Sequence record: PZ049723.1
Strand: one strand, 5' to 3'
Length of the DNA: 44,509 nucleotides
Source: a phage
A model generated the notes under the pieces. It had not been told where the DNA came from, searched no databases, and saw only the letters and a list, made by a program, of their open reading frames with translations. The position numbers were made by a program, and so were the translations under genes. The first letter of the stretch is position 1; the number at the start of each line of letters is the position of its first letter. Of this stretch, positions 15 to 44,509 are shown in pieces.

Positions 15-233
15 ATGAAAACTTTAATTATGATTTGTGCGGTTCTTTTGTCCGGTTGTGCCGACATGCCGTCTAAAATCTGCGACGCAACATACATGAA
101 TAGCGGCATTGATTATGCGGTCCCTGTGTATGGTGTCGCAGACTTCTCCGGGCATAAAATGCTAAGGGCGGGTTATCCGTTTAGCTTCCAGTACGTGTCG
201 GTAGACCATTTCAAAAACACCACCTGCGAATAA
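15..233 (+). CDS. Putative secreted lipoprotein; candidate receptor-blocking superinfection-exclusion protein (Cor/Llp-like by position)
   Basis: ATG at 15 with AGGAGA RBS 7 nt upstream; N-terminal signal peptide with lipobox LLSGC; 72 aa; next to the tail-tip genes but on the opposite strand; hairpin terminator follows. Confidence 0.5.
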   Translation: MKTLIMICAVLLSGCADMPSKICDATYMNSGIDYAVPVYGVADFSGHKMLRAGYPFSFQYVSVDHFKNTTCE

Positions 234-10159: not shown

Positions 10160-10480
10160 TTATTCAGTCTCAGACGAGGGGGGCCGCCGACCCCCGTCTA
10201 GTCTGAAAGACTGGTGGTTGTCCCGCCTGTCCCGATCGGCTAAAAACCGCGGCAGCACTGGCGGGGACGGGGTGCTGTCCCGCTTTGTCCCGTCCCTTAT
10301 TTGTCCCGCTTTTTGTCCCGCTTAGTTTATGCAATAAAACTGCATAGGTATGCATATTTGCGGGGTGGGACAAAGCGGGACGTCCCGTCTGTCCCGCTTT
10401 TAGTTTATGCAATAAAAGTAAATAGGTATGCGGTTTTTGAGGGGCGGGACAAAACGGGATGTACCGCTTGTCCCGCTTCA
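10160..10480. repeat. Composite non-coding element, copy A (stem-loop + GTCCCGC arrays + TATGCA palindromes)
   Basis: 10160-10214 is a 55-nt GC-rich stem-loop identical except 2 nt to 27166-27220; 10269-10345 matches 27275-27351; about 12 GTCCCGC/GCGGGAC heptamers including palindrome CGGGACGTCCCG; TTAGTTTATGCAATAAAA box present twice. Confidence 0.7.
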
Positions 10481-16036: not shown

Positions 16037-16065
16037 TTGCAATCATCGTATTGGTTGCATATATT
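16037..16065 (+). promoter_or_regulatory. Sigma70-like promoter with embedded TTGGTTGCA motif pair
   Basis: TTGCAA (16037-16042), 17-bp spacer, TATATT (16060-16065); TTGGTTGCA at 16051-16059 and 16065-16073; GAGGA RBS and ATG at 16095 follow. Confidence 0.45.
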
Positions 16066-16094
16066 GGTTGCACACCAACAACGAGGACACAAAA

Positions 16095-16859
16095 ATGAGA
16101 CTGACGAAAGACATTAAAAACCAGATTCTGGCTAACATCCTGCGCGACCACGAAATCGCGACCGAAGCCAAATCAATAATGATGGACTCGCGCGACCTTG
16201 CGTACGCCATTACGCTGGACTGTATGCCGGAAGGCATTCGCACGTTCGCCGAGCTATTCGCGCACATTGAAGCAATCAGCGATGACCCGTCGCAGATGTA
16301 CGGCGTCTGCGTATACACCAACAAGGCGACGTATAGTTATAACACCGACCGCCCGAAAGGTATCGGCAGCGTTTACGACGCCACTTTCGAAATCAATGCG
16401 GGCGGAAATGTGCGCACACTGTCATTGAGCGGTGACGGACGACAATACCGAGTACATCGCGGATACTGGGAATATAAATACATGAATAAGCTATCTCCCG
16501 ATCTCGGCGATATTGTACCTGGGTACGAAGAAGTAATGCTGGCTTCTGTGTGCGAAGTGGACGAGGATGGGAAAGCGCTGCCGATCTATAAGCCGCGCTG
16601 TCGTGCAGAGTTCCCGGCGGATCATGATTTCTGCAAGCGCCTTGACCGTAACGATAAGGCCCGCCGCGATTTGCGAGCTAAGTATGACGCGTTCAAACTC
16701 ACCGTTACCGGTGTGCTGGACCTGCACAATACTGACAAGAAGCTGATTAAGGCATGGCCTGAAGTTGAGCAATTCATACCATACCCGGACAAGCAAAAAT
16801 CCACGGCGGTGGCGCTGGACGTGAAAACACTCAACGAGATTTGCGGCATTCCGCGCTAA
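16095..16859 (+). CDS. Hypothetical protein; opposite-strand moron inside the structural cluster
   Basis: 255-aa ORF with own promoter-like sequence, GAGGA RBS and bidirectional terminator; only plus-strand gene between 234 and 30437; no recognisable motif. Confidence 0.6.
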   Translation: MRLTKDIKNQILANILRDHEIATEAKSIMMDSRDLAYAITLDCMPEGIRTFAELFAHIEAISDDPSQMYGVCVYTNKATYSYNTDRPKGIGSVYDATFEINAGGNVRTLSLSGDGRQYRVHRGYWEYKYMNKLSPDLGDIVPGYEEVMLASVCEVDEDGKALPIYKPRCRAEFPADHDFCKRLDRNDKARRDLRAKYDAFKLTVTGVLDLHNTDKKLIKAWPEVEQFIPYPDKQKSTAVALDVKTLNEICGIPR

Positions 16860-23277: not shown

Positions 23278-23307
23278 AGTGTAATACTCCTCTCGTTGAT
23301 TGGTAGC

Positions 23308-23337
23308 AGTATGGTCTGATAGTTGGTTGCAAGTCAA
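23308..23337 (-). promoter_or_regulatory. Promoter-like sequence at head of the structural operon
   Basis: Minus strand TTGACT (23337-23332), TGCAACCAA motif, about 18-bp spacer, CATACT (23313-23308); follows the lysis-operon terminator. Confidence 0.4.
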
Positions 23338-23340
23338 GCA

Positions 23341-23366
23341 ATAAAAAGCCCGGAATTAACCGGGCT
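23341..23366 (-). terminator. Rho-independent terminator after lysis-region operon
   Basis: agcccgg-aattaa-ccgggct 7-bp stem followed on minus strand by TTTTTAT. Confidence 0.6.
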
Positions 23367-26956: not shown

Positions 26957-27015
26957 TTCTACCCTCCTGTTGGTGTGCAACCAATGTAGCAAGGTGCCGG
27001 GTTGGATGCAACCAA
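26957..27015 (-). promoter_or_regulatory. Promoter-like sequence with two TTGGTTGCA motifs and conserved leader
   Basis: On minus strand TTGGTTGCAT, 17-bp spacer, TACATT, then GGTTGCACACCAACA and GGAGGG RBS; the last 15-mer is shared exactly with 16066-16080. Confidence 0.45.
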
Positions 27016-27165
27016 TATTAATCACGCGCATGAAAAAGTTGATCGCTATCTGCTGTAGCTGCAAACTGCATTTTTCACCCACCATTCTACATATCGCATT
27101 GGTTGCCTAGTTCACCCACGACCGCGATTCGCATCCTGCTGCCGTGTATTTTGCAATCCCGGATT

Positions 27166-27351
27166 TTATTCAGTCTCAGACGAGGGGGGCCGTTGACCCC
27201 CGTCTAGTCTGAAAGACTGGGGTGCTGTCCCGCTGTCCCGCTCCTCGCCAGGCCGCGCCATCCGGGGCGGGACGGGGGTGCTGTCCCGCTTTGTCCCGCC
27301 CCTTGGCTGTCCCGCTTTTTGTCCCGCTTAGTTTATGCAATAAAACTGCAT
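27166..27351. repeat. Composite non-coding element, copy B
   Basis: 27166-27220 stem-loop identical to 10160-10214 except the loop (gccgTTga vs gccgCCga); 27275-27351 near-identical to 10269-10345; GTCCCGC arrays and TATGCA-N7-TGCATA palindrome. Confidence 0.7.
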
Positions 27352-27433: not shown

Positions 27434-27664
27434 TTAATCTTTTAAATCATCATCGGTCGCAGAAAGCGTGATGGGTATACTCGTTTTAATGACAATATTC
27501 GACGACCCGTAGATGGCCCCGGTGTGCGGATCGGTATAAAAACCGAGCACGCCGCGCTCGACCATATCGTCGATTGCCTTCGTCGATGTGCCACCTTTCG
27601 CCAGCCCAGCCTGGCGGACAATTGCCGATTTACTGAATCCGGTATGGTCCGGGTTATCTTCCAT
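27434..27664 (-). CDS. Small HTH DNA-binding protein (putative regulator)
   Basis: ATG at 27664 overlaps the helicase stop (ATGA); 76 aa; helix-turn-helix-like SKSAIVRQAGLAKGGTSTKAIDDMVERG; a longer in-frame start at 27691 is possible. Confidence 0.5.
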   Translation of the reverse strand: MEDNPDHTGFSKSAIVRQAGLAKGGTSTKAIDDMVERGVLGFYTDPHTGAIYGSSNIVIKTSIPITLSATDDDLKD

Positions 27665-29040
27665 CAGTTTTTCCAGTGCCGCATAAAGCACTTTCTCTTT
27701 TCGTTGCGCGGTCCCGCGGCGTTCTCTTCCTTAACTGCTGCCTTGCCCGCGGCCTTCGCCTGTTCGATGGCGAACGGTGCCAGGGCGACCGGTACGAGGT
27801 ACAGAGTCTCGTCGCGAGGCGTGGAGGCAATCGGCTTGACGTCCCAACCGGCGACCACATCACCGAAGTCCGGCCCGGTGCTGGTGGACTGGTGGGCTTC
27901 GAACGCCTCGGACTTGCGGAGATCCACCTTAACCTTGCACTTGAGCAGGACGAAGCCGCGCGGCGCTTGCTTGATGCCGTTACGTGCCTTTTCGTGATAC
28001 AGGTTAAGTTGTCCCGGCTGGTTGTCGTCCGGCTGTTCCAGGAAGAACGCGGAATCAACAGCACCATGAAGCGCGCCGGACCCGCGTGGCGTTCTGCTGC
28101 CGTTTGCACCTTTAGCAGGGTGGTGGATGACGCCCGCACTGCCGCCTGTATTTTCCGCAATGGCCTTCAGCGCCTTGACCACTTCGCCCATATCGCTGGC
28201 GTTGTTCTCGTCGAACGGTTTAGCATCGGCGGACCGCAGCGCAACAGTCTGGTTGAGTGAGTCGAATGCCACCAGGCCAACCGGTTCGCCGTTAGCGGTG
28301 CGGTTGATAAAGCTGATAACTTCGCGCAAGCCCGATTTGCTGGTGATATCCCAGCCGCGTGACTGCAGATCGATAATGTGCAGCTTGTCCAGGTCGTGCT
28401 CGTATTTAATCTGCAATGCCTCCTTACGCTGGTTGGAGGCTTCGCCACCTTCCGCGTCGAAATAGAAGCAATGAGACTGGACGACCTTCGCACCGCCAAA
28501 CGGAATACCCGCGGCAACCGCACCCATCTGCCCCAGCACGTAGAACGATTTACCGATGTTCGATTCGCCAGCCATATACCAGGTCGATTTGAAGTTAATC
28601 AACCCCTCGATGATCGGGTCGTGCTTACTGAACAGCGCAACCGGCTCGTTGTCCAGGTCTGCATCGGTGCACACGCCGTATTCTTCGCCGTCGCCAACTG
28701 CATCAACGATATGTTCATAGCAGGATTCCACTTCCTCGTCGTCCAGTCCTGGAAGGATGGCGGCGATTTGCTTGCGGGACATATTGTGTGGCTCGACGTT
28801 CAGGTGGTCCGGGATCCCGATAAGACGCAGCGCCAGGTGCTGGTGTCTGTTCAGTTCCGAGCAACACTCGTTGCCGGTGTGCATACACTTGAAACGGATC
28901 TCGCCATCCTTGACCATGATAGCCGTCGACCCTTCGCCGCTGTGCAGATGTTCGTTCGGGCACGGCACTTCATAACCCCGACCGGACGACAGCGGTTCGA
29001 ATCCGGCCTGGAAGCACCAATCCAGAATGCCGTCAGCCAC
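27664..29040 (-). CDS. Replicative helicase with N-terminal Zn finger (RecA-fold, RepA/DnaB-like)
   Basis: Walker A GESNIGKS and Walker B-like LVAFDSL; N-terminal Cys/His cluster (CPNEH ... CMHTGNECC); ORF opens immediately after an in-frame TAA and has only a GTG start. Confidence 0.65.
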   Translation of the reverse strand: MADGILDWCFQAGFEPLSSGRGYEVPCPNEHLHSGEGSTAIMVKDGEIRFKCMHTGNECCSELNRHQHLALRLIGIPDHLNVEPHNMSRKQIAAILPGLDDEEVESCYEHIVDAVGDGEEYGVCTDADLDNEPVALFSKHDPIIEGLINFKSTWYMAGESNIGKSFYVLGQMGAVAAGIPFGGAKVVQSHCFYFDAEGGEASNQRKEALQIKYEHDLDKLHIIDLQSRGWDITSKSGLREVISFINRTANGEPVGLVAFDSLNQTVALRSADAKPFDENNASDMGEVVKALKAIAENTGGSAGVIHHPAKGANGSRTPRGSGALHGAVDSAFFLEQPDDNQPGQLNLYHEKARNGIKQAPRGFVLLKCKVKVDLRKSEAFEAHQSTSTGPDFGDVVAGWDVKPIASTPRDETLYLVPVALAPFAIEQAKAAGKAAVKEENAAGPRNEKRKCFMRHWKN

Positions 29041-29696
29041 CCCATCATCGCCCTGGGTAAGCTCGCGGCGTACTTCCTCTTCTCCACCCCCAGCTTATCC
29101 GCCAGGCGGAGCAGACGACGGACGCTGGCGCGTTTGCCGTAGTGGCACTTAACGACAGACTGCTGATGTGGCAGGTACATAAGGCGGTTTGTGTCTTTAG
29201 TACAATCGTCGAAGTCCACATCTGACAGACCCAGTTGGTGTAATAGTGCATACTGGACGCGGCCCAGGTCTTCAGCCGGTACAGGCTTGTCCGTGAGCAC
29301 CAGGAAACGGGCGCAACGCGTGCCGCCTTTCAGCGGGTGGCGGTCGCCGGTTGTGGTGTGAAATACGTGCTCCAGTCCCGCGTCGATGAACGCCTTACGG
29401 CAGCGGCGTAGGGTGCGGGTGTCGGTACGGTCGATATCGAAGAACATGATCGAGCGGTCCACCGCACTGGTCTTACGACGCAATCCGTCACGGGTATACG
29501 CCACGATGCCATCGGCCTTACGCTTGCGGCGCGCATACTCGGCTTTATCTTCCGTCTTGTTGATATGCACCGAGGAGATTTCTTTCGCATCATTGATAAA
29601 GGCGAAAAACTCTTCGGTAGTCATCTGGAAGTTTTCCGCCCTGGCTTTTTCGCCTTTTTTAGCGGGTCGTGTTACAGCGAATTTAATTAAGCTCAT
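28851..29696 (-). CDS. Primase-like replication protein, N-terminal part; 3' end overlaps helicase out of frame
   Basis: ATG at 29696; DxD-like FFDIDRTD and HTTTGDRHP motifs; last ~60 codons are Arg/Ser/Cys-rich and read as the wrong frame of the helicase N-terminus; G5 run at 29087-29091. Confidence 0.4.
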   Translation of the reverse strand: MSLIKFAVTRPAKKGEKARAENFQMTTEEFFAFINDAKEISSVHINKTEDKAEYARRKRKADGIVAYTRDGLRRKTSAVDRSIMFFDIDRTDTRTLRRCRKAFIDAGLEHVFHTTTGDRHPLKGGTRCARFLVLTDKPVPAEDLGRVQYALLHQLGLSDVDFDDCTKDTNRLMYLPHQQSVVKCHYGKRASVRRLLRLADKLGVEKRKYAASLPRAMMGWLTAFWIGASRPDSNRCRPVGVMKCRARTNICTAAKGRRLSWSRMARSVSSVCTPATSVARN

Positions 29697-29706
29697 TGCC
29701 GTGGCC

Positions 29707-30036
29707 TTACTTAGAAGTTTTATTATTGCGTACCCAAGAGCGCACTGTGCTCTGATTAATTCCGGTCAACTCGGCAATCATCGCCCAGGATTTGCCCTCG
29801 GCGCGCAAACGGATAACCTGCTTTTTGTATTCTTCCATTTCTTCATTGTGTTTTTGCAGCTTGCTTGCTGCCGTACCGTTGAGTAATTCCAGCCGGGCGC
29901 GCAATTCTTTTTCGACACTGCGCAGGCGCTCGATTTCAAATAACACCGCACCCACGGCATCGGTATAAGCCCATGACCGGCTTGTCTCACTGCAAACAGT
30001 CTTCGTTAACATTTCGATTGCGTCGTTTACATTCAT
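29707..30036 (-). CDS. HTH transcriptional regulator (LuxR/sigma region-4-like C-terminal HTH)
   Basis: 109 aa; C-terminal SWAMIAELTGINQSTVRSWV; first gene of the leftward operon from the divergent promoter region. Confidence 0.6.
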   Translation of the reverse strand: MNVNDAIEMLTKTVCSETSRSWAYTDAVGAVLFEIERLRSVEKELRARLELLNGTAASKLQKHNEEMEEYKKQVIRLRAEGKSWAMIAELTGINQSTVRSWVRNNKTSK

Positions 30037-30067
30037 TGTTCTGCCCTCAGTTGGTTAATGACCAACG

Positions 30068-30096: not shown

Positions 30097-30166
30097 ATCC
30101 TTTGGATATTGAAACGGGCGCGCACGCGTGTAATAATAATTCCCGTCTCATTGTCTCTTATTGGTT

Positions 30167-30201
30167 AGCGCCGTCGCATTTTGCCTCGGCGCTTTTTTTT
30201 T
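30167..30201 (+). terminator. Rho-independent terminator in divergent promoter region
   Basis: agcgccg / cggcgct 7-bp stem with 13-nt loop followed by nine T residues. Confidence 0.6.
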
Positions 30202-30211
30202 AAATTAGTTG

Positions 30212-30241
30212 TTGACACCCATCCTGCAACCAATCTATTAT
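30212..30241 (+). promoter_or_regulatory. Rightward early promoter (strong sigma70 consensus)
   Basis: TTGACA (30212-30217), 18-bp spacer containing TGCAACCAA (30225-30233), TATTAT (30236-30241). Confidence 0.6.
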
Positions 30242-30950: not shown

Positions 30951-30956
30951 TATATT

Positions 30957-30986
30957 CCGGCCCGCTAATCTGCGGGCCTCTTTTTA
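30957..30986 (+). terminator. Rho-independent terminator after first early gene
   Basis: ggcccgc-taatct-gcgggcc stem followed by TCTTTTT. Confidence 0.6.
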
Positions 30987-32869: not shown

Positions 32870-33104
32870 AGTATTCGCAATCTTATTGATGTTTTTGCTC
32901 GGCGCGCTGGGCTTTATCCTGCATTGCGTGCAAGGCGTGTTAATGGTGGCCTGGATGATTCGCCATCCAACCCAATGGCTGGATGATGGATACAGCACCA
33001 TTGCCGTGGCGTGGATCGCGAGACATGGCGACCGACCGCCGCTAAGCTGGATCGAGAACGCCACCAACTACGTTACCCGAAATCTTTTTAATGAAAATGC
33101 TTGA
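32862..33104 (+). CDS. Small membrane protein
   Basis: 80 aa with two hydrophobic helices; ATG overlaps the upstream stop. Confidence 0.45.
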   Translation: MNKVFAILLMFLLGALGFILHCVQGVLMVAWMIRHPTQWLDDGYSTIAVAWIARHGDRPPLSWIENATNYVTRNLFNENA

Positions 33105-33129
33105 CCGCTTAGGCGCAACCAAGTAGATT
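33101..33129 (+). promoter_or_regulatory. Promoter-like sequence upstream of SSB-like gene
   Basis: TTGACC (33101-33106), 17-bp spacer containing GCAACCAAG (33115-33123), TAGATT (33124-33129); second GCAACCAAG at 33131-33139. Confidence 0.4.
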
Positions 33130-33194
33130 AGCAACCAAGCCGAACGGGGTGGCTTCCAATAGCCCCGATACATGTGAAAATGAGGAATTGGAAA

Positions 33195-33999: not shown

Positions 34000-34023
34000 A
34001 GCCCGCTTAATGCGGGCTTTTTA
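34000..34023 (+). terminator. Rho-independent terminator after SSB-like gene
   Basis: agcccgc-ttaat-gcgggct stem followed by TTTTTAAT. Confidence 0.6.
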
Positions 34024-34038
34024 ATAGGACAACGAAAA

Positions 34039-34209
34039 ATGCGTATTAAAGCCAGCGAAGTAAAAGTCGGAATGCAAGTATGGTCCAAGCTACTGGGGGA
34101 ATATTTCACGGTTGCCGAGATTCGCAACAACGGCGAAGAGATCGCCCTGTCAGACGGCATCTTCTCCATGATCGGCAGCGCTGACGCCGTAGTGAGGATT
34201 AAGCAATGA
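34039..34209 (+). CDS. Hypothetical small protein (56 aa)
   Basis: ATG at 34039; stop overlaps the polymerase start (ATGA). Confidence 0.35.
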   Translation: MRIKASEVKVGMQVWSKLLGEYFTVAEIRNNGEEIALSDGIFSMIGSADAVVRIKQ

Positions 34210-36497: not shown

Positions 36498-36775
36498 TGA
36501 CACCAGAAGGCAAGATTCAAAGTCACCTGATGAGACGGGTGAAAGATGTTGGCGGATTCTGCCGAAAACTGGCATGGGAGGGGCGCGCAGGTGCGCCCGA
36601 CCTGATTATTATCATCAACGGCAAAATAGTGTTCGTCGAAGTGAAGCGCCCCGGCGGAAAACCGAAGCCGCACCAGGTACGTGAACATGAGAGGATGGCC
36701 CGCCGCGGCGCGGACGTTCGCGTTATAGACAACATCGCCGACTGTGATTTATTGGTTGCTGAATTGGTCGCATAG
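36497..36775 (+). CDS. VRR-NUC domain nuclease
   Basis: ATG at 36497 overlapping the polymerase stop; 92 aa; GAPDLIIIINGKIVFVEVKRPGGKPKPHQ matches the VRR-NUC D...E.K core. Confidence 0.7.
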   Translation: MTPEGKIQSHLMRRVKDVGGFCRKLAWEGRAGAPDLIIIINGKIVFVEVKRPGGKPKPHQVREHERMARRGADVRVIDNIADCDLLVAELVA

Positions 36776-36784
36776 CGGTATAGT
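36756..36784 (+). promoter_or_regulatory. Promoter-like sequence inside 3' end of VRR-NUC gene
   Basis: TTGGTTGCT at 36751-36759 supplies TTGCTG (36756-36761); 17-bp spacer; TATAGT (36779-36784); GAGGA RBS follows. Confidence 0.35.
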
Positions 36785-36996: not shown

Positions 36997-37019
36997 GGCG
37001 GGCTTGTCCCGCCATTTTT
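36997..37019 (+). terminator. Rho-independent terminator
   Basis: ggcggg-cttgt-cccgcc stem followed by ATTTTTG. Confidence 0.55.
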
Positions 37020-37032
37020 GGGAGACATGACG

Positions 37033-37251
37033 ATGAAAGAACATTACCGACTCACCAAGCTGGGCGAATGTAAACCGGGCGATCGCGTGTGGTTTATTGC
37101 TGGCCTGAATTACCCGCTGCCGTTGACGGTGTGCTGGCAGAAGTTTAAGAGCTTCCGGGCTACCGGTGTCCACATCGGACACGCCACCAACTACGACGCC
37201 ACAAAAAGGAACTGGAACAGTGAGACTGAAGTCTGGAAAAAGGCGGAATAA
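37033..37251 (+). CDS. Hypothetical protein
   Basis: ATG at 37033 with GGAGAC RBS 6 nt upstream (track ORF begins at TTG 37018); 72 aa. Confidence 0.4.
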   Translation: MKEHYRLTKLGECKPGDRVWFIAGLNYPLPLTVCWQKFKSFRATGVHIGHATNYDATKRNWNSETEVWKKAE

Positions 37252-38680: not shown

Positions 38681-39387
38681 CTATTGCTAAAATGACAATC
38701 TGGCCATTATTCGACGGCAGCGGGTTGATGATTGAGCGTGCTGCCGAGATGGGGCATAAGTGTTATTGCTTCAACTACTCCGAAGCCGATCACGGGTCTT
38801 ACCTTGACTACCGGATCTATGGTCGCGGAATCCGCTATCGTAATGAGTTTATCGATCTGGACTTCGTGGACCGCGCGATGAATGGTGATTTTGGAACGCC
38901 GGATATCATCTATGCGTTCCCTCCGTGTACGGATCTGGCCGTGAGCGGCGCGCCAGCTTTCCCGCGCAAGCGTGCAAAAGACCCTGCCTTCCAGCTTAAG
39001 GCGGTGCGCACCGCGAAGATCGCCGCTTACCTGGGTGATTTCTTCGAAGTGCCGTACATGATTGAGAATCCGCGCAGTGTGCTTTCCACCAAGTGGCGCA
39101 AGCCAGACCACTCGTTTGACCCGTGGGAGTATGGGGGATATCTGCCGGAGGATGACGTACACCCGCTCTTCCCGGAATACATCAACGCCCGCGATTCATA
39201 TCCGAAGCTGACCTGCTTGTGGACCGGCAACGGCTTCCGTATGCCGGAGAAAAAGCCTGTATTCGTTGAAAAAGGGTACTCGAAGCAGTATAGTCGCCTC
39301 GGAGGCAAATCAGCCCGCACAAAATTAATCCGGTCGCTCACCCCGCGCGGCTTCGCGATAGCAGTCAATGAGGAAAATTTAAAATGA
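38677..39387 (+). CDS. Short DNA cytosine-5 methyltransferase-like protein
   Basis: 236 aa; motif I-like LFDGSG, catalytic-type FPPC (PCT rather than PCQ), ENP (motif VI-like ENV); apparently lacks a long target-recognition region. Confidence 0.45.
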   Translation: MTIAKMTIWPLFDGSGLMIERAAEMGHKCYCFNYSEADHGSYLDYRIYGRGIRYRNEFIDLDFVDRAMNGDFGTPDIIYAFPPCTDLAVSGAPAFPRKRAKDPAFQLKAVRTAKIAAYLGDFFEVPYMIENPRSVLSTKWRKPDHSFDPWEYGGYLPEDDVHPLFPEYINARDSYPKLTCLWTGNGFRMPEKKPVFVEKGYSKQYSRLGGKSARTKLIRSLTPRGFAIAVNEENLK

Positions 39388-39707
39388 ATACTACATTCGA
39401 AGCCATTGATTTTTCGGTTGCAATGACTAACCAGTTATTCTCCTACGACAGCAAAACCGGAGTCATCCGTCTGAAGTCCACAGGCTGCAAAATTGGCAAC
39501 ATCAATACTGCCGATGGTGGCACACGTATCGAATGCAACGGCAAAACGCTATCGGGCGCCCGCGTGGCGTGGATCATTGAGACTGGCAATACAATCCCTC
39601 CAGGCTATGCCGTAGTGTGCCGTCAACGCACACCAGGCCATTACGGCAACCGCATTAGTAACCTGTATCTGGTAGACGTTGCGCGCGACCCAAATTTTTA
39701 TTCGTAA
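39384..39707 (+). CDS. HNH-like (HNH_3/NUMOD-type) endonuclease-like protein
   Basis: 107 aa; pattern ARVAWIIETGNTIPPGYAVV ... GNRISNLYLV resembles HNH_3 cores, but the usual first His is not evident. Confidence 0.4.
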   Translation: MNTTFEAIDFSVAMTNQLFSYDSKTGVIRLKSTGCKIGNINTADGGTRIECNGKTLSGARVAWIIETGNTIPPGYAVVCRQRTPGHYGNRISNLYLVDVARDPNFYS

Positions 39708-39708
39708 A

Positions 39709-39741
39709 TTGGTTGCATAACCGTATTGGTTGCATTATATT
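39709..39741 (+). promoter_or_regulatory. Promoter-like sequence formed by tandem TTGGTTGCA motifs
   Basis: TTGGTTGCA at 39709-39717 and 39726-39734; TTGCAT (39713-39718), 17-bp spacer, TATATT (39736-39741). Confidence 0.4.
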
Positions 39742-39743
39742 GA

Positions 39744-39769
39744 GGGTGTCCGGTTTGGACGCCCTTTTT
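39744..39769 (+). terminator. Rho-independent terminator overlapping predicted transcription start
   Basis: gggtgtcc-ggttt-ggacgccc 8-bp stem (one G-U pair) followed by TTTTT. Confidence 0.5.
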
Positions 39770-39788
39770 AATACCCGGAGACAGTGAT

Positions 39789-40031
39789 ATGAAATCATTA
39801 TTTTTCGACTACGACGGCGACCTTCGATTTTGGGTGCTTCTCACCCTCATGATTGCCGGTTGTATTGGCATACCTTCGACGGCTATTTACTACACGGAAC
39901 GCTACGAATGCAAGACCGTGTATGCCGAGCAAACCGGACGCAATACCCAATGGCGATATGGTGTCTGCTGGGTTGAAATGGATGGCAAATTTATTCCTCG
40001 CGATGAGATTCGCACAACGGAGCTTAAATAG
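39789..40031 (+). CDS. Small membrane protein / possible lipoprotein
   Basis: 80 aa; hydrophobic helix WVLLTLMIAGCIGIP with Cys in lipobox-like context; GGAG RBS. Confidence 0.45.
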   Translation: MKSLFFDYDGDLRFWVLLTLMIAGCIGIPSTAIYYTERYECKTVYAEQTGRNTQWRYGVCWVEMDGKFIPRDEIRTTELK

Positions 40032-41173: not shown

Positions 41174-41640
41174 AATTACTGATTTGTGATCTGGATGGCG
41201 TTATTAACGGTTCAAGTGATGCGCGCGCCGACCTGGTGCCGGGGATAAAAACGAAATCAACATTTTGGGCGAAGTGGCACAAAGCGCACGTACGCGAAGA
41301 CCTGAACATGGATATGCTGCCGCTACTGCGCATGTACAAAGAGCAAGGCTTCGAGATCGCGTATCTGACCAACCGGCAGCGCGAATGTTGGGACACCACC
41401 GCCGAGCAATTGGAGGTCTTCCCCGTAGGTCGATTGTTCATGCGCCACATGCTGGACGACACCCCGCCGCCAGAGTTTAAGGCGTGCGCCGTTTTCAAAA
41501 TGGTCTGCTATGCGGACGTGTCGGAACTGGTCATCATTGAAGACTGTCCGAAGAACATCGCGGCAATTCGTCGGGCGTGTGGCGATCTGGTCCCGAAAAT
41601 TTACGCAATAAACGTTGCAAAATTCACTTGCAACCAATAG
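41170..41640 (+). CDS. HAD-superfamily phosphatase
   Basis: 156 aa; N-terminal HAD motif I ICDLDGVI; GAGGAA RBS. Confidence 0.6.
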   Translation: MKLLICDLDGVINGSSDARADLVPGIKTKSTFWAKWHKAHVREDLNMDMLPLLRMYKEQGFEIAYLTNRQRECWDTTAEQLEVFPVGRLFMRHMLDDTPPPEFKACAVFKMVCYADVSELVIIEDCPKNIAAIRRACGDLVPKIYAINVAKFTCNQ

Positions 41641-41657
41641 GTTGGTTGCACTATAGT
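41628..41657 (+). promoter_or_regulatory. 22-bp perfect palindrome TGCAACCAA-TAGG-TTGGTTGCA embedded in promoter-like sequence
   Basis: TTGCAA (41628-41633), 18-bp spacer made of the palindrome, TATAGT (41652-41657); a GC hairpin (41667-41687) and AAGGA RBS follow. Confidence 0.45.
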
Positions 41658-44443: not shown

Positions 44444-44509
44444 AGCTGAATCCTCATAAATTGGTTGCATTCTTGGTCGAGCGGTGCAATACTAAAACTC
44501 AACCAAATA

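Follow-up and report, generated by a model that had tools for sequence, protein, structure and literature searches.

A Conserved Phage Junction in Which a Predicted Promoter Is Interleaved with a Terminator and Carries Two Copies of a Genus-Wide Motif

Introduction

At operon junctions of compact phage genomes, an intrinsic (Rho-independent) terminator may be combined with a restart promoter, with a GC-rich hairpin and U-run lying within tens of bases of a σ70 promoter. Small HTH repressors made from early promoters, such as λ Cro and Mu Ner, act through sites placed over the –35, the spacer, or the +1 of early promoters. Cro acts at OR and OL, and Ner acts at tandem direct repeats. In T4, a short, asymmetric, phage-specific motif of 9–10 bp accompanies a normal σ70 –10 at many promoters; these MotA boxes occupy one position (–30) in one orientation, where they replace the –35. 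Sites for λ CII are TTGC-N6-TTGC direct repeats that flank the –35, and in lambdoid pR′-QBE-tR′ modules, a factor binds between the –35 and –10 of a promoter that adjoins a terminator.

Here, we examine positions 39709–39769 of a phage genome, a junction whose parts are of ordinary kinds: an intrinsic terminator, a σ70 promoter, and operator-like repeats for a small HTH protein. It has the GC-rich hairpin, U-run, and nearby σ70 promoter of the junctions described above, which occur in the conventional terminator-then-promoter order elsewhere in the same genome (21971–21933, 23366–23308, and 30167–30241). In contrast to those sites, the elements at 39709–39769 are interleaved, with the –35 and –10 upstream of the hairpin and the predicted start within its 5′ arm. 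The promoter is thus unshielded, and any immunity of local transcripts to termination would come from a missing half stem.

The repeats belong to a 10-bp motif, ATTGGTTGCA, that can be compared with several known operators. As with Cro and Ner, the candidate regulator is a small HTH protein encoded behind an early promoter, the sites lie over the –35, spacer, or +1 of early promoters, and they include the candidate’s own promoter (a TTGGT palindrome at +1 of P30096). The tandem direct repeats resemble Ner sites. Unlike Cro and Ner sites, the unit is asymmetric, is used in either orientation, and is spaced at 12–35 bp, with binding and the sign of regulation both inferred, and the sites are distributed genome-wide over ~10 promoters of a virulent phage. 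The motif is similar to MotA boxes in being short, asymmetric, phage-specific, and accompanied by a normal σ70 –10 at many promoters, and it fills the –35 position in six of them. However, copies also sit at –18 and +1, are sometimes inverted, and accompany consensus –35 hexamers, a distribution that departs from the MotA type; we saw no MotA or AsiA homologue. TTGC-containing direct repeats around the –35 are shared with λ CII sites, whereas the 17-bp spacing (variable elsewhere), the longer motif, and the positions beyond the –35 are not.

Two features appear less usual. One is the interleaved order with the start in the stem, which is unique in the genome and conserved across the genus, and the other is that a single asymmetric 10-bp site recurs in both orientations at ~10 promoters of a virulent phage. 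We found no description of either the interleaved order or the both-orientation site use in the searchable literature. The phages concerned, the Dhillonviruses, are common, much-used coliphages (BASEL collection, therapy candidates, and defense-system studies) whose transcription program is undescribed. For this genus, we offer a map of ~10 predicted promoters sharing a 10-bp motif, together with a candidate regulator. At the junction itself, whether a transcript stops at the terminator would depend on its point of origin, which makes the site a clean natural example of such behavior. If the predicted behavior is true, this 60-bp terminate-and-restart module is a possible part for synthetic biology.

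Results and Discussion

The window, by which we mean the whole 44.5-kb stretch of DNA analyzed, matches 158 phage records at 80–95% identity. Nearly all of these are Escherichia or Shigella phages of the genus Dhillonvirus (HK578, SSL-2009a, YD-2008.s, SO-1, and others) with genomes of 43–46 kb. Judged by these matches and sizes, the window is essentially the whole genome of a virulent siphophage (Dhillonvirus, HK578-like, E. coli). Gene names were carried over from the YD-2008.s annotation. The junction is an 81-bp gap inside a rightward block of replication and DNA-modification genes, with Lar, SNF2-helicase, Dcm, and HNH genes upstream and the 80-aa gene, Dam methylase, and others downstream. 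We consider it probable that the region is a conserved transcription-unit junction, at which one gene block ends in a terminator and transcription of the following block restarts from an overlapping promoter. Its elements are as follows.

39384–39707, + strand: HNH-like gene, 107 aa, left flank of the 81-bp gap
39708–39717, + strand: motif copy 1, ATTGGTTGCA, whose TTGCA(T) provides the –35
39713–39718, + strand: –35-like TTGCAT, a 3/6 match to TTGACA with the TTG kept
39719–39724, + strand: hypervariable filler between the motif copies (with T39718, 7 variable nt)
39725–39734, + strand: motif copy 2, ATTGGTTGCA, in the promoter spacer adjoining the –10, centered at about –18.5
39736–39741, + strand: –10 hexamer TATATT, separated from TTGCAT by a 17-nt spacer
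39747–39749, + strand: predicted transcription start, likeliest at G39748, placed by the usual 6–8 nt distance to the –10
39744–39764, + strand: terminator stem-loop GGGTGTCC-GGTTT-GGACGCCC, with folded arms at 39744–39751 and 39757–39764
39765–39769, + strand: U-tract TTTTT, directly 3′ of the stem and followed by AATA
39777–39791, + strand: SD (GGAG) and ATG of the 80-aa gene, read from the sequence; the SD is conserved
39789–40031, + strand: 80-aa gene, right flank of the 81-bp gap

The repeat is visible as two exact 10-mers, TTGGTTGCAT, at 39709–39718 and 39726–39735, 17 bp apart. The –10 has the T1, A2, and T6 of a σ70 hexamer; the –35-like TTGCAT lies 17 nt upstream, where 16–18 nt is expected, and matches the consensus at just three of six positions. 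A scan for consensus promoters and terminators listed neither the promoter nor the terminator of the junction, TTGCAT being below the scan’s 4-of-6 rule. Promoter-like matches of this quality are not enriched genome-wide, with 25 found versus 20.5 ± 5.2 expected from Markov-generated random sequences, and the promoter match alone is therefore not above chance. Conservation and ~9 look-alike sites nevertheless make the junction promoter credible. These other predicted promoters share its footprint in alignments of the relatives, namely a –35 or motif and a TAnnnT that are both conserved, separated by a spacer that varies. At five of them (16037, 36756, 41628, 27011, and 44465), the same TTGCA-type –35 lies within a full or partial motif copy. 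The likeliest start, G39748, is preceded by a pyrimidine and is located 7 nt past the –10. The hairpin begins 3 nt past the –10, which places this start inside the 5′ arm. For any Dhillonvirus, we found no published 5′/3′ end mapping, RNA-seq, or binding data in the searchable literature, and queries with the motif string, Dhillonvirus promoters or start sites, and the genome papers of the relatives returned nothing relevant.

To follow the junction across the genus, 18 distinct sequences of the orthologous gap were assembled (seven complete relatives, one partial locus, and IMG/VR contigs), to which we added L141, a metagenomic relative ~72% identical over its alignable part. Among the 18, identity of the flanking coding sequence falls to ~80%, while both ATTGGTTGCA copies and their 17-bp register are invariant or nearly so. 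Copy 1 changes only at its last base, from A to G, in two of the sequences, and is kept in L141. The 7-nt filler between the copies, by comparison, exists in at least ten versions. The –10 reads TATATT, TATCTT (three sequences), or TAACTT (L141), with T1, A2, and T6 never changing. In every relative, the hairpin begins 1–3 nt past the –10, and the hairpin, T-run, and SD are all kept across the 18 relatives and L141. The L141 module reads ATTGGTTGCA-N7-ATTGGTTGCG, TAACTT, AAGGCGTTCCA/TGGAGCGCCTT, TTAATTTT, SD, and ATG.

This pattern of conservation bears on a rival account of the locus, that it is a terminator only. The motif pair would then be a site for a regulator or roadblock, TATATT would be nonfunctional, and the downstream genes would be reached by read-through. 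The promoter-like match is, as noted, at chance level, and read-through is evidently used in this phage, as the terminators at 30959, 34000, and 36997 precede genes that have no restart promoter. Yet T1, A2, T6, and the 17-nt spacing are invariant in 19 sequences in which positions 3–5 and the filler vary. The composite of motif plus TATAnT also recurs directly upstream of genes at 16051 and 41642, and the A/T-rich stretch before the terminator at 30959 is not conserved, indicating that such hexamers are not kept by default. We regard the terminator-only account as improbable.

The gene that follows the conserved ATG differs among the relatives, being the 80-aa gene, a 154-aa gene, or Dam. Homology with about half of the relatives stops near the start of the 80-aa gene, and exactly at the ATG in the aligned genomes. 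Separately, the T-run–SD–ATG stretches at 39770–39791, 34019–34042, and 37014–37036 are alike (TTTTTAATA..GGAGACA..ATG) and may serve as boundaries that favor the swapping of gene modules.

The hairpin at 39744–39764 has a stem of 8–10 bp and a 5-nt loop, in keeping with the GC-rich stem of about 5–12 bp and short loop of an intrinsic terminator, and its folding energy is –15.4 to –17.6 kcal/mol. The U-rich tract, TTTTT at 39765–39769, abuts the stem and is invariant in the 18 relatives; in L141, it is weaker (TTAATTTT). Six Dhillonvirus variants of the hairpin, folded with their flanks, gave –16 to –19.5 kcal/mol. Stem pairing is kept across relatives through T-A to T·G changes and a paired insertion (TCC/GGA to TTCC/GGAA), although the covariation is mostly one-sided wobble with few two-sided changes. 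The stem-loop of L141 differs in sequence and folds alone at –16.6 kcal/mol. Because a MAFFT-based covariation count misaligns this divergent stem, the count was replaced by folding of each sequence. The record of phage WFI independently annotates the same hairpin as a terminator. A comparison with Rfam found nothing at gathering scores anywhere in the window, nor any match with E ≤ 1 across 39600–39900.

RNAs that start at 39747–39749 were folded in the same way. They keep just 4 bp of stem (about –5 kcal/mol), with 4 nt between its end and the U-run, and in these models the residual stem is no terminator. The original prediction had described a tandem pair forming TTGCAT-N17-TATATT, a terminator hairpin overlapping a start near 39748, and local transcripts deprived of a complete 5′ arm. 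The first is read directly in the sequence, the second is borne out by the position of G39748 in the 5′ arm in a geometry conserved across the genus, and the third agrees with the folding of the truncated RNAs. The conserved geometry and the apparent inability of these RNAs to form the terminator make termination of incoming transcripts with passage of locally started ones the best reading of the sequence.

We then considered the motif genome-wide. Its core, TTGGTTGC, has 20 exact copies in the genome versus 2.4 ± 1.4 expected. Of these 20, fourteen lie wholly in non-coding DNA, which makes up 8% of the genome (P = 1.4e-11), and another three cross the ends of genes; such over-representation and non-coding concentration are those of an operator or regulon motif. 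ATTGGTTGC is among the commonest 9-mers in all seven of the complete genomes examined and is the top 9-mer in two more distant relatives. When 115 distinct sites were pooled, the information was confined to A-TTGGTTGC-A, without a palindromic partner. Copies are mostly paired, 12–35 bp apart, and in either orientation. Their centers cluster near –35, –18, and +1 of the predicted starts, always within the polymerase footprint, and the motif overlaps promoter cores and is conserved amid variable flanks. Copies placed like junction copy 2 are found at 16051 and 41642, and in inverted form at 30226 and 33115. When viral contigs were scanned with a loose pattern for tandem TTGGTTGC, most of the matches were unrelated, and the scan was not used. 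The other predicted promoters that bear the motif are listed here.

30212–30241, + strand: early rightward promoter TTGACA-N18-TATTAT, inverted motif at 30226–30233 in the spacer
33101–33139, + strand: SSB promoter TTGACC-N17-TAGATT, inverted motif in the spacer (33115) and at +1 (33131)
36751–36784, + strand: Lar promoter TTGCTG-N17-TATAGT, motif at 36752, variant TTGGTCGC copy at 36764, –35 at 36756
41628–41657, + strand: promoter of hyp13 (173-aa gene), TTGCAA-N18-TATAGT, motif inverted at 41630 and direct at 41642
16037–16072, + strand: Nmad5-gene promoter TTGCAA-N17-TATATT, motif in the spacer (16051) and at +1 (16064)
26976–27016, – strand: hyp53 promoter TTGCAT-N17-TACATT, motif at –35 (27008) and +1 (26977)
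23300–23337, – strand: promoter of the SbcD-like exonuclease gene, TTGACT-N18-CATACT, inverted motifs at 23323 and 23300, preceded by a terminator at 23366–23347
44460–44493, + strand: Cor promoter TTGCAT-N17-(TGc)AATACT, motif at 44461; it reaches the window end, with the gene at 15–233
30096–30068, – strand: leftward early promoter, motif-related palindrome TTGGT-N5-ACCAA at +1

The motif appears operator-like: at most predicted early or middle promoters, it covers the –35, the spacer, or the +1, a placement typical of operators. On this basis, we read the pair at 39708–39734 as two regulator-binding sites that also supply the –35. The earlier view of the tandem TTGGTTGCA pair as the source of the –35 is correct as far as it goes, since the pair does supply that element, but it is incomplete: the 10-bp motif, present here in two copies, occurs genus-wide on most predicted early or middle promoters, in either orientation. 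A regulator-binding site is the most likely role of the motif, which would make the junction promoter a probably regulated one. Two other assignments were rejected. A σ54 site (TGGCAC-N5-TTGCA) does not fit the GG/GC spacing, and a mere duplicated –35 does not fit copies that are also inverted, in spacers, and at +1.

The motif might instead be bound by a host factor, for example PdhR or CytR. ATTGGT presumably resembles a PdhR-box half-site, and we take GTTGCATT to resemble the CytR octamer. Some copies form TTGGT-N5-ACCAA palindromes at +1 (16064, 26977, and 30050–30066), and the hosts of the genus are Enterobacterales throughout. Conservation, however, spans the entire A-TTGGTTGC-A, which extends beyond a PdhR or CytR half-site, most copies are without a palindromic partner, and spacings of 12–35 bp fit no fixed dimer. 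A host binder is thus highly improbable.

Within the phage, one protein stands out as a candidate.

29707–30036, – strand: candidate regulator, 109 aa, C-terminal HTH; it heads the leftward early operon and lies directly behind a near-consensus early promoter

Among 20 small proteins scanned, it is the sole one with a recognizable DNA-binding domain (Pfam HTH), matching HTH_23, HTH_28, and Sigma70_r4_2 at residues ~65–105. Its AlphaFold model (pLDDT 85) consists of a short helix, a 58-residue helix, and the C-terminal HTH, and a Foldseek search of the PDB with this model returned only generic HTH folds at E > 0.5. Among isolate phages, the protein occurs in Dhillonvirus only, annotated variously as transposase, resolvase, or Gam. 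The C-terminal ~60 aa, including the HTH, are invariant across relatives, while the N-terminal 45 aa are unrelated. The invariant HTH half appears to mirror the invariance of the motif, and the N-terminal exchange suggests domain swapping of a putative oligomerization or partner-binding part. On this circumstantial evidence, the 109-aa protein is a candidate motif binder.

Copies inside the polymerase footprint fit repression, and they are also compatible with activation or σ appropriation. In a positive role, ATTGGTTGCA would be the site at which a phage factor, such as the 109-aa protein with its Sigma70_r4-like domain, recruits or reprograms RNA polymerase, and the junction would be a middle promoter that is silent until then. 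Consistent with this, six predicted promoters have a weak TTGCA-type –35 within a full or partial motif copy, and the 109-aa protein both matches Pfam Sigma70_r4_2 and is encoded directly behind a near-consensus early promoter. Known activators (T4 MotA/AsiA-style and Mu Mor-style) use a single position and orientation, whereas this motif occurs in both orientations at –35, –18, and +1 and also lies within the spacers of predicted promoters that already have a consensus –35 (30212 and 33101). The use of either orientation and several positions argues against a MotA-type element, even though activation is still compatible with the data, and we consider a positive element unlikely.

We favor repression within a three-layer model that combines the terminator, the interleaved σ70 promoter, and an operator pair for a trans-acting regulator, and we judge this model somewhat better than even. 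Transcripts from the Lar promoter (36756) would cross SNF2, Dcm, and HNH and then meet the terminator, where the stem-loop at 39744–39764 and the U-run at 39765–39769 would end or attenuate transcription of the upstream block. A host σ70-type promoter would restart transcription at about G39748. Because this start lies inside the stem, the local RNA would lack the 5′ arm and could not terminate; carrying only half of the stem, it would escape and bring a 41-nt leader with the SD into the downstream block (80-aa gene, Dam methylase, and others). The ATTGGTTGCA copies at the –35 and in the spacer would each bind a regulator acting in trans, which would compete with RNA polymerase or reprogram it. 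The regulator would most likely be a phage-encoded shut-off repressor of the Cro/Ner kind, with the 109-aa HTH protein as the candidate. Bound at –35 and –18, such a regulator would shut the restart promoter and, together with the terminator, silence the downstream block. The sequence elements, their conservation, the distribution of the motif over the genome, and the folding energies are observed directly; from them, we infer that the promoter is active, where it starts, how efficiently the terminator works, in which direction regulation acts, and which protein binds.

The two activities should also interfere with each other. Promoter-bound polymerase, with a footprint of about –55 to +20, would cover the entire terminator, and incoming polymerases would sweep the promoter and operators before stopping, so that occlusion may make the restart inefficient. 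The description of the site as an insulator therefore needs qualification: the downstream genes would be insulated, but the promoter itself is exposed, since its –35 and –10 precede the terminator and incoming polymerases cross the promoter and operators first.

The proximity of motif and terminator also recalls Q-like antitermination, in which a phage factor would load at the motif copies and render polymerase resistant to terminators, with the adjacent terminator as part of the switch. The layout resembles lambdoid pR′-QBE-tR′, and the exonuclease, DNA polymerase, and SNF2 helicase genes, all essential, each lie behind a plain terminator with no intervening promoter. A lambdoid Q module is nonetheless a poor match to the junction: local transcripts start inside the terminator stem and so need no antitermination, no Q-family domain was found among the 20 proteins scanned, and the presence of the motif at +1 and in both orientations is unlike QBE. 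The chance that the junction works in this way seems slim indeed.

A broader version, in which the ATTGGTTGCA sites are loading points where a phage factor (candidate: the 109-aa protein) reprograms polymerase via σ appropriation or Q-like antitermination, is a speculative possibility to which we give little weight. Were it true, it would explain the plain terminators at 30959, 34000, and 36997 before essential replication genes that lack a promoter, and positions 39709–39769 would be one node of a single-factor temporal program in a virulent siphophage genus.

Additional Observations

Conserved plain terminators at 30959–30978, 34000–34018, and 36997–37013 each follow the first gene behind a promoter (hyp56, SSB, and Lar, respectively). 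After each comes an SD and a gene directly, without a promoter (exonuclease, DNA polymerase, and SNF2 helicase). Expression of these three genes thus depends on read-through. The terminators must be leaky or overridden, and a small probability is kept for antitermination or polymerase reprogramming by the motif-binding factor. Positions 30951–30978 were considered as a second case of a –10 directly before a terminator and rejected, as the TATATT there is not conserved. The loop of this terminator (30966–30971) reads TAATCT in some relatives and the reverse complement, AGATTA, in others (L002 and L006 compared) with identical stems, a change that looks like a loop inversion.

At 30109–30198, a promoter-like TTGAAA-N17-AATAAT with a start at ~30144 lies ~50 nt before a strong terminator and is conserved in relatives. 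This terminator (30167–30198, GCGCCG...CGGCGC plus T9) is just upstream of the main early promoter at 30212. A short RNA may be produced here, and the T-run may also serve as an UP element.

TTGGT-N5-ACCAA palindromes at 16064–16079, 26970–26984, and 30050–30066 are centered on the predicted starts of three promoters. Two of the three share a 17-mer, TTGGTTGCACACCAACA, directly upstream of the SD.

The helicase-primase gene (27434–29696, – strand) is split over two frames, with tblastn HSPs switching frame near 29073–29082, by a C5 run; in YD-2008.s, the protein is a single 754-aa ORF. The split (29040–29110) reflects either an error in sequencing or a genuine frameshift.

The genome also contains 17 members of a second repeat family, GCGGGACA. 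Seven lie between the tape-measure and tail-chaperone genes and six just downstream of the helicase-primase gene (10219–10476 and 27226–27327), and these clusters match “region A” and “region B” of the SO-1 record. The repeats are probably replication-origin iterons, in an arrangement that we take to be reminiscent of P4 ori/crr.

Finally, two genes run on the strand opposite to the structural-gene block that surrounds them. One, at 16098–16859 (+ strand), encodes an Nmad5 “nucleotide modification associated” protein (Pfam E = 3e-57), and the other, at 15–233 (+ strand), encodes a Cor-like exclusion protein. Each has its own motif-bearing predicted promoter.
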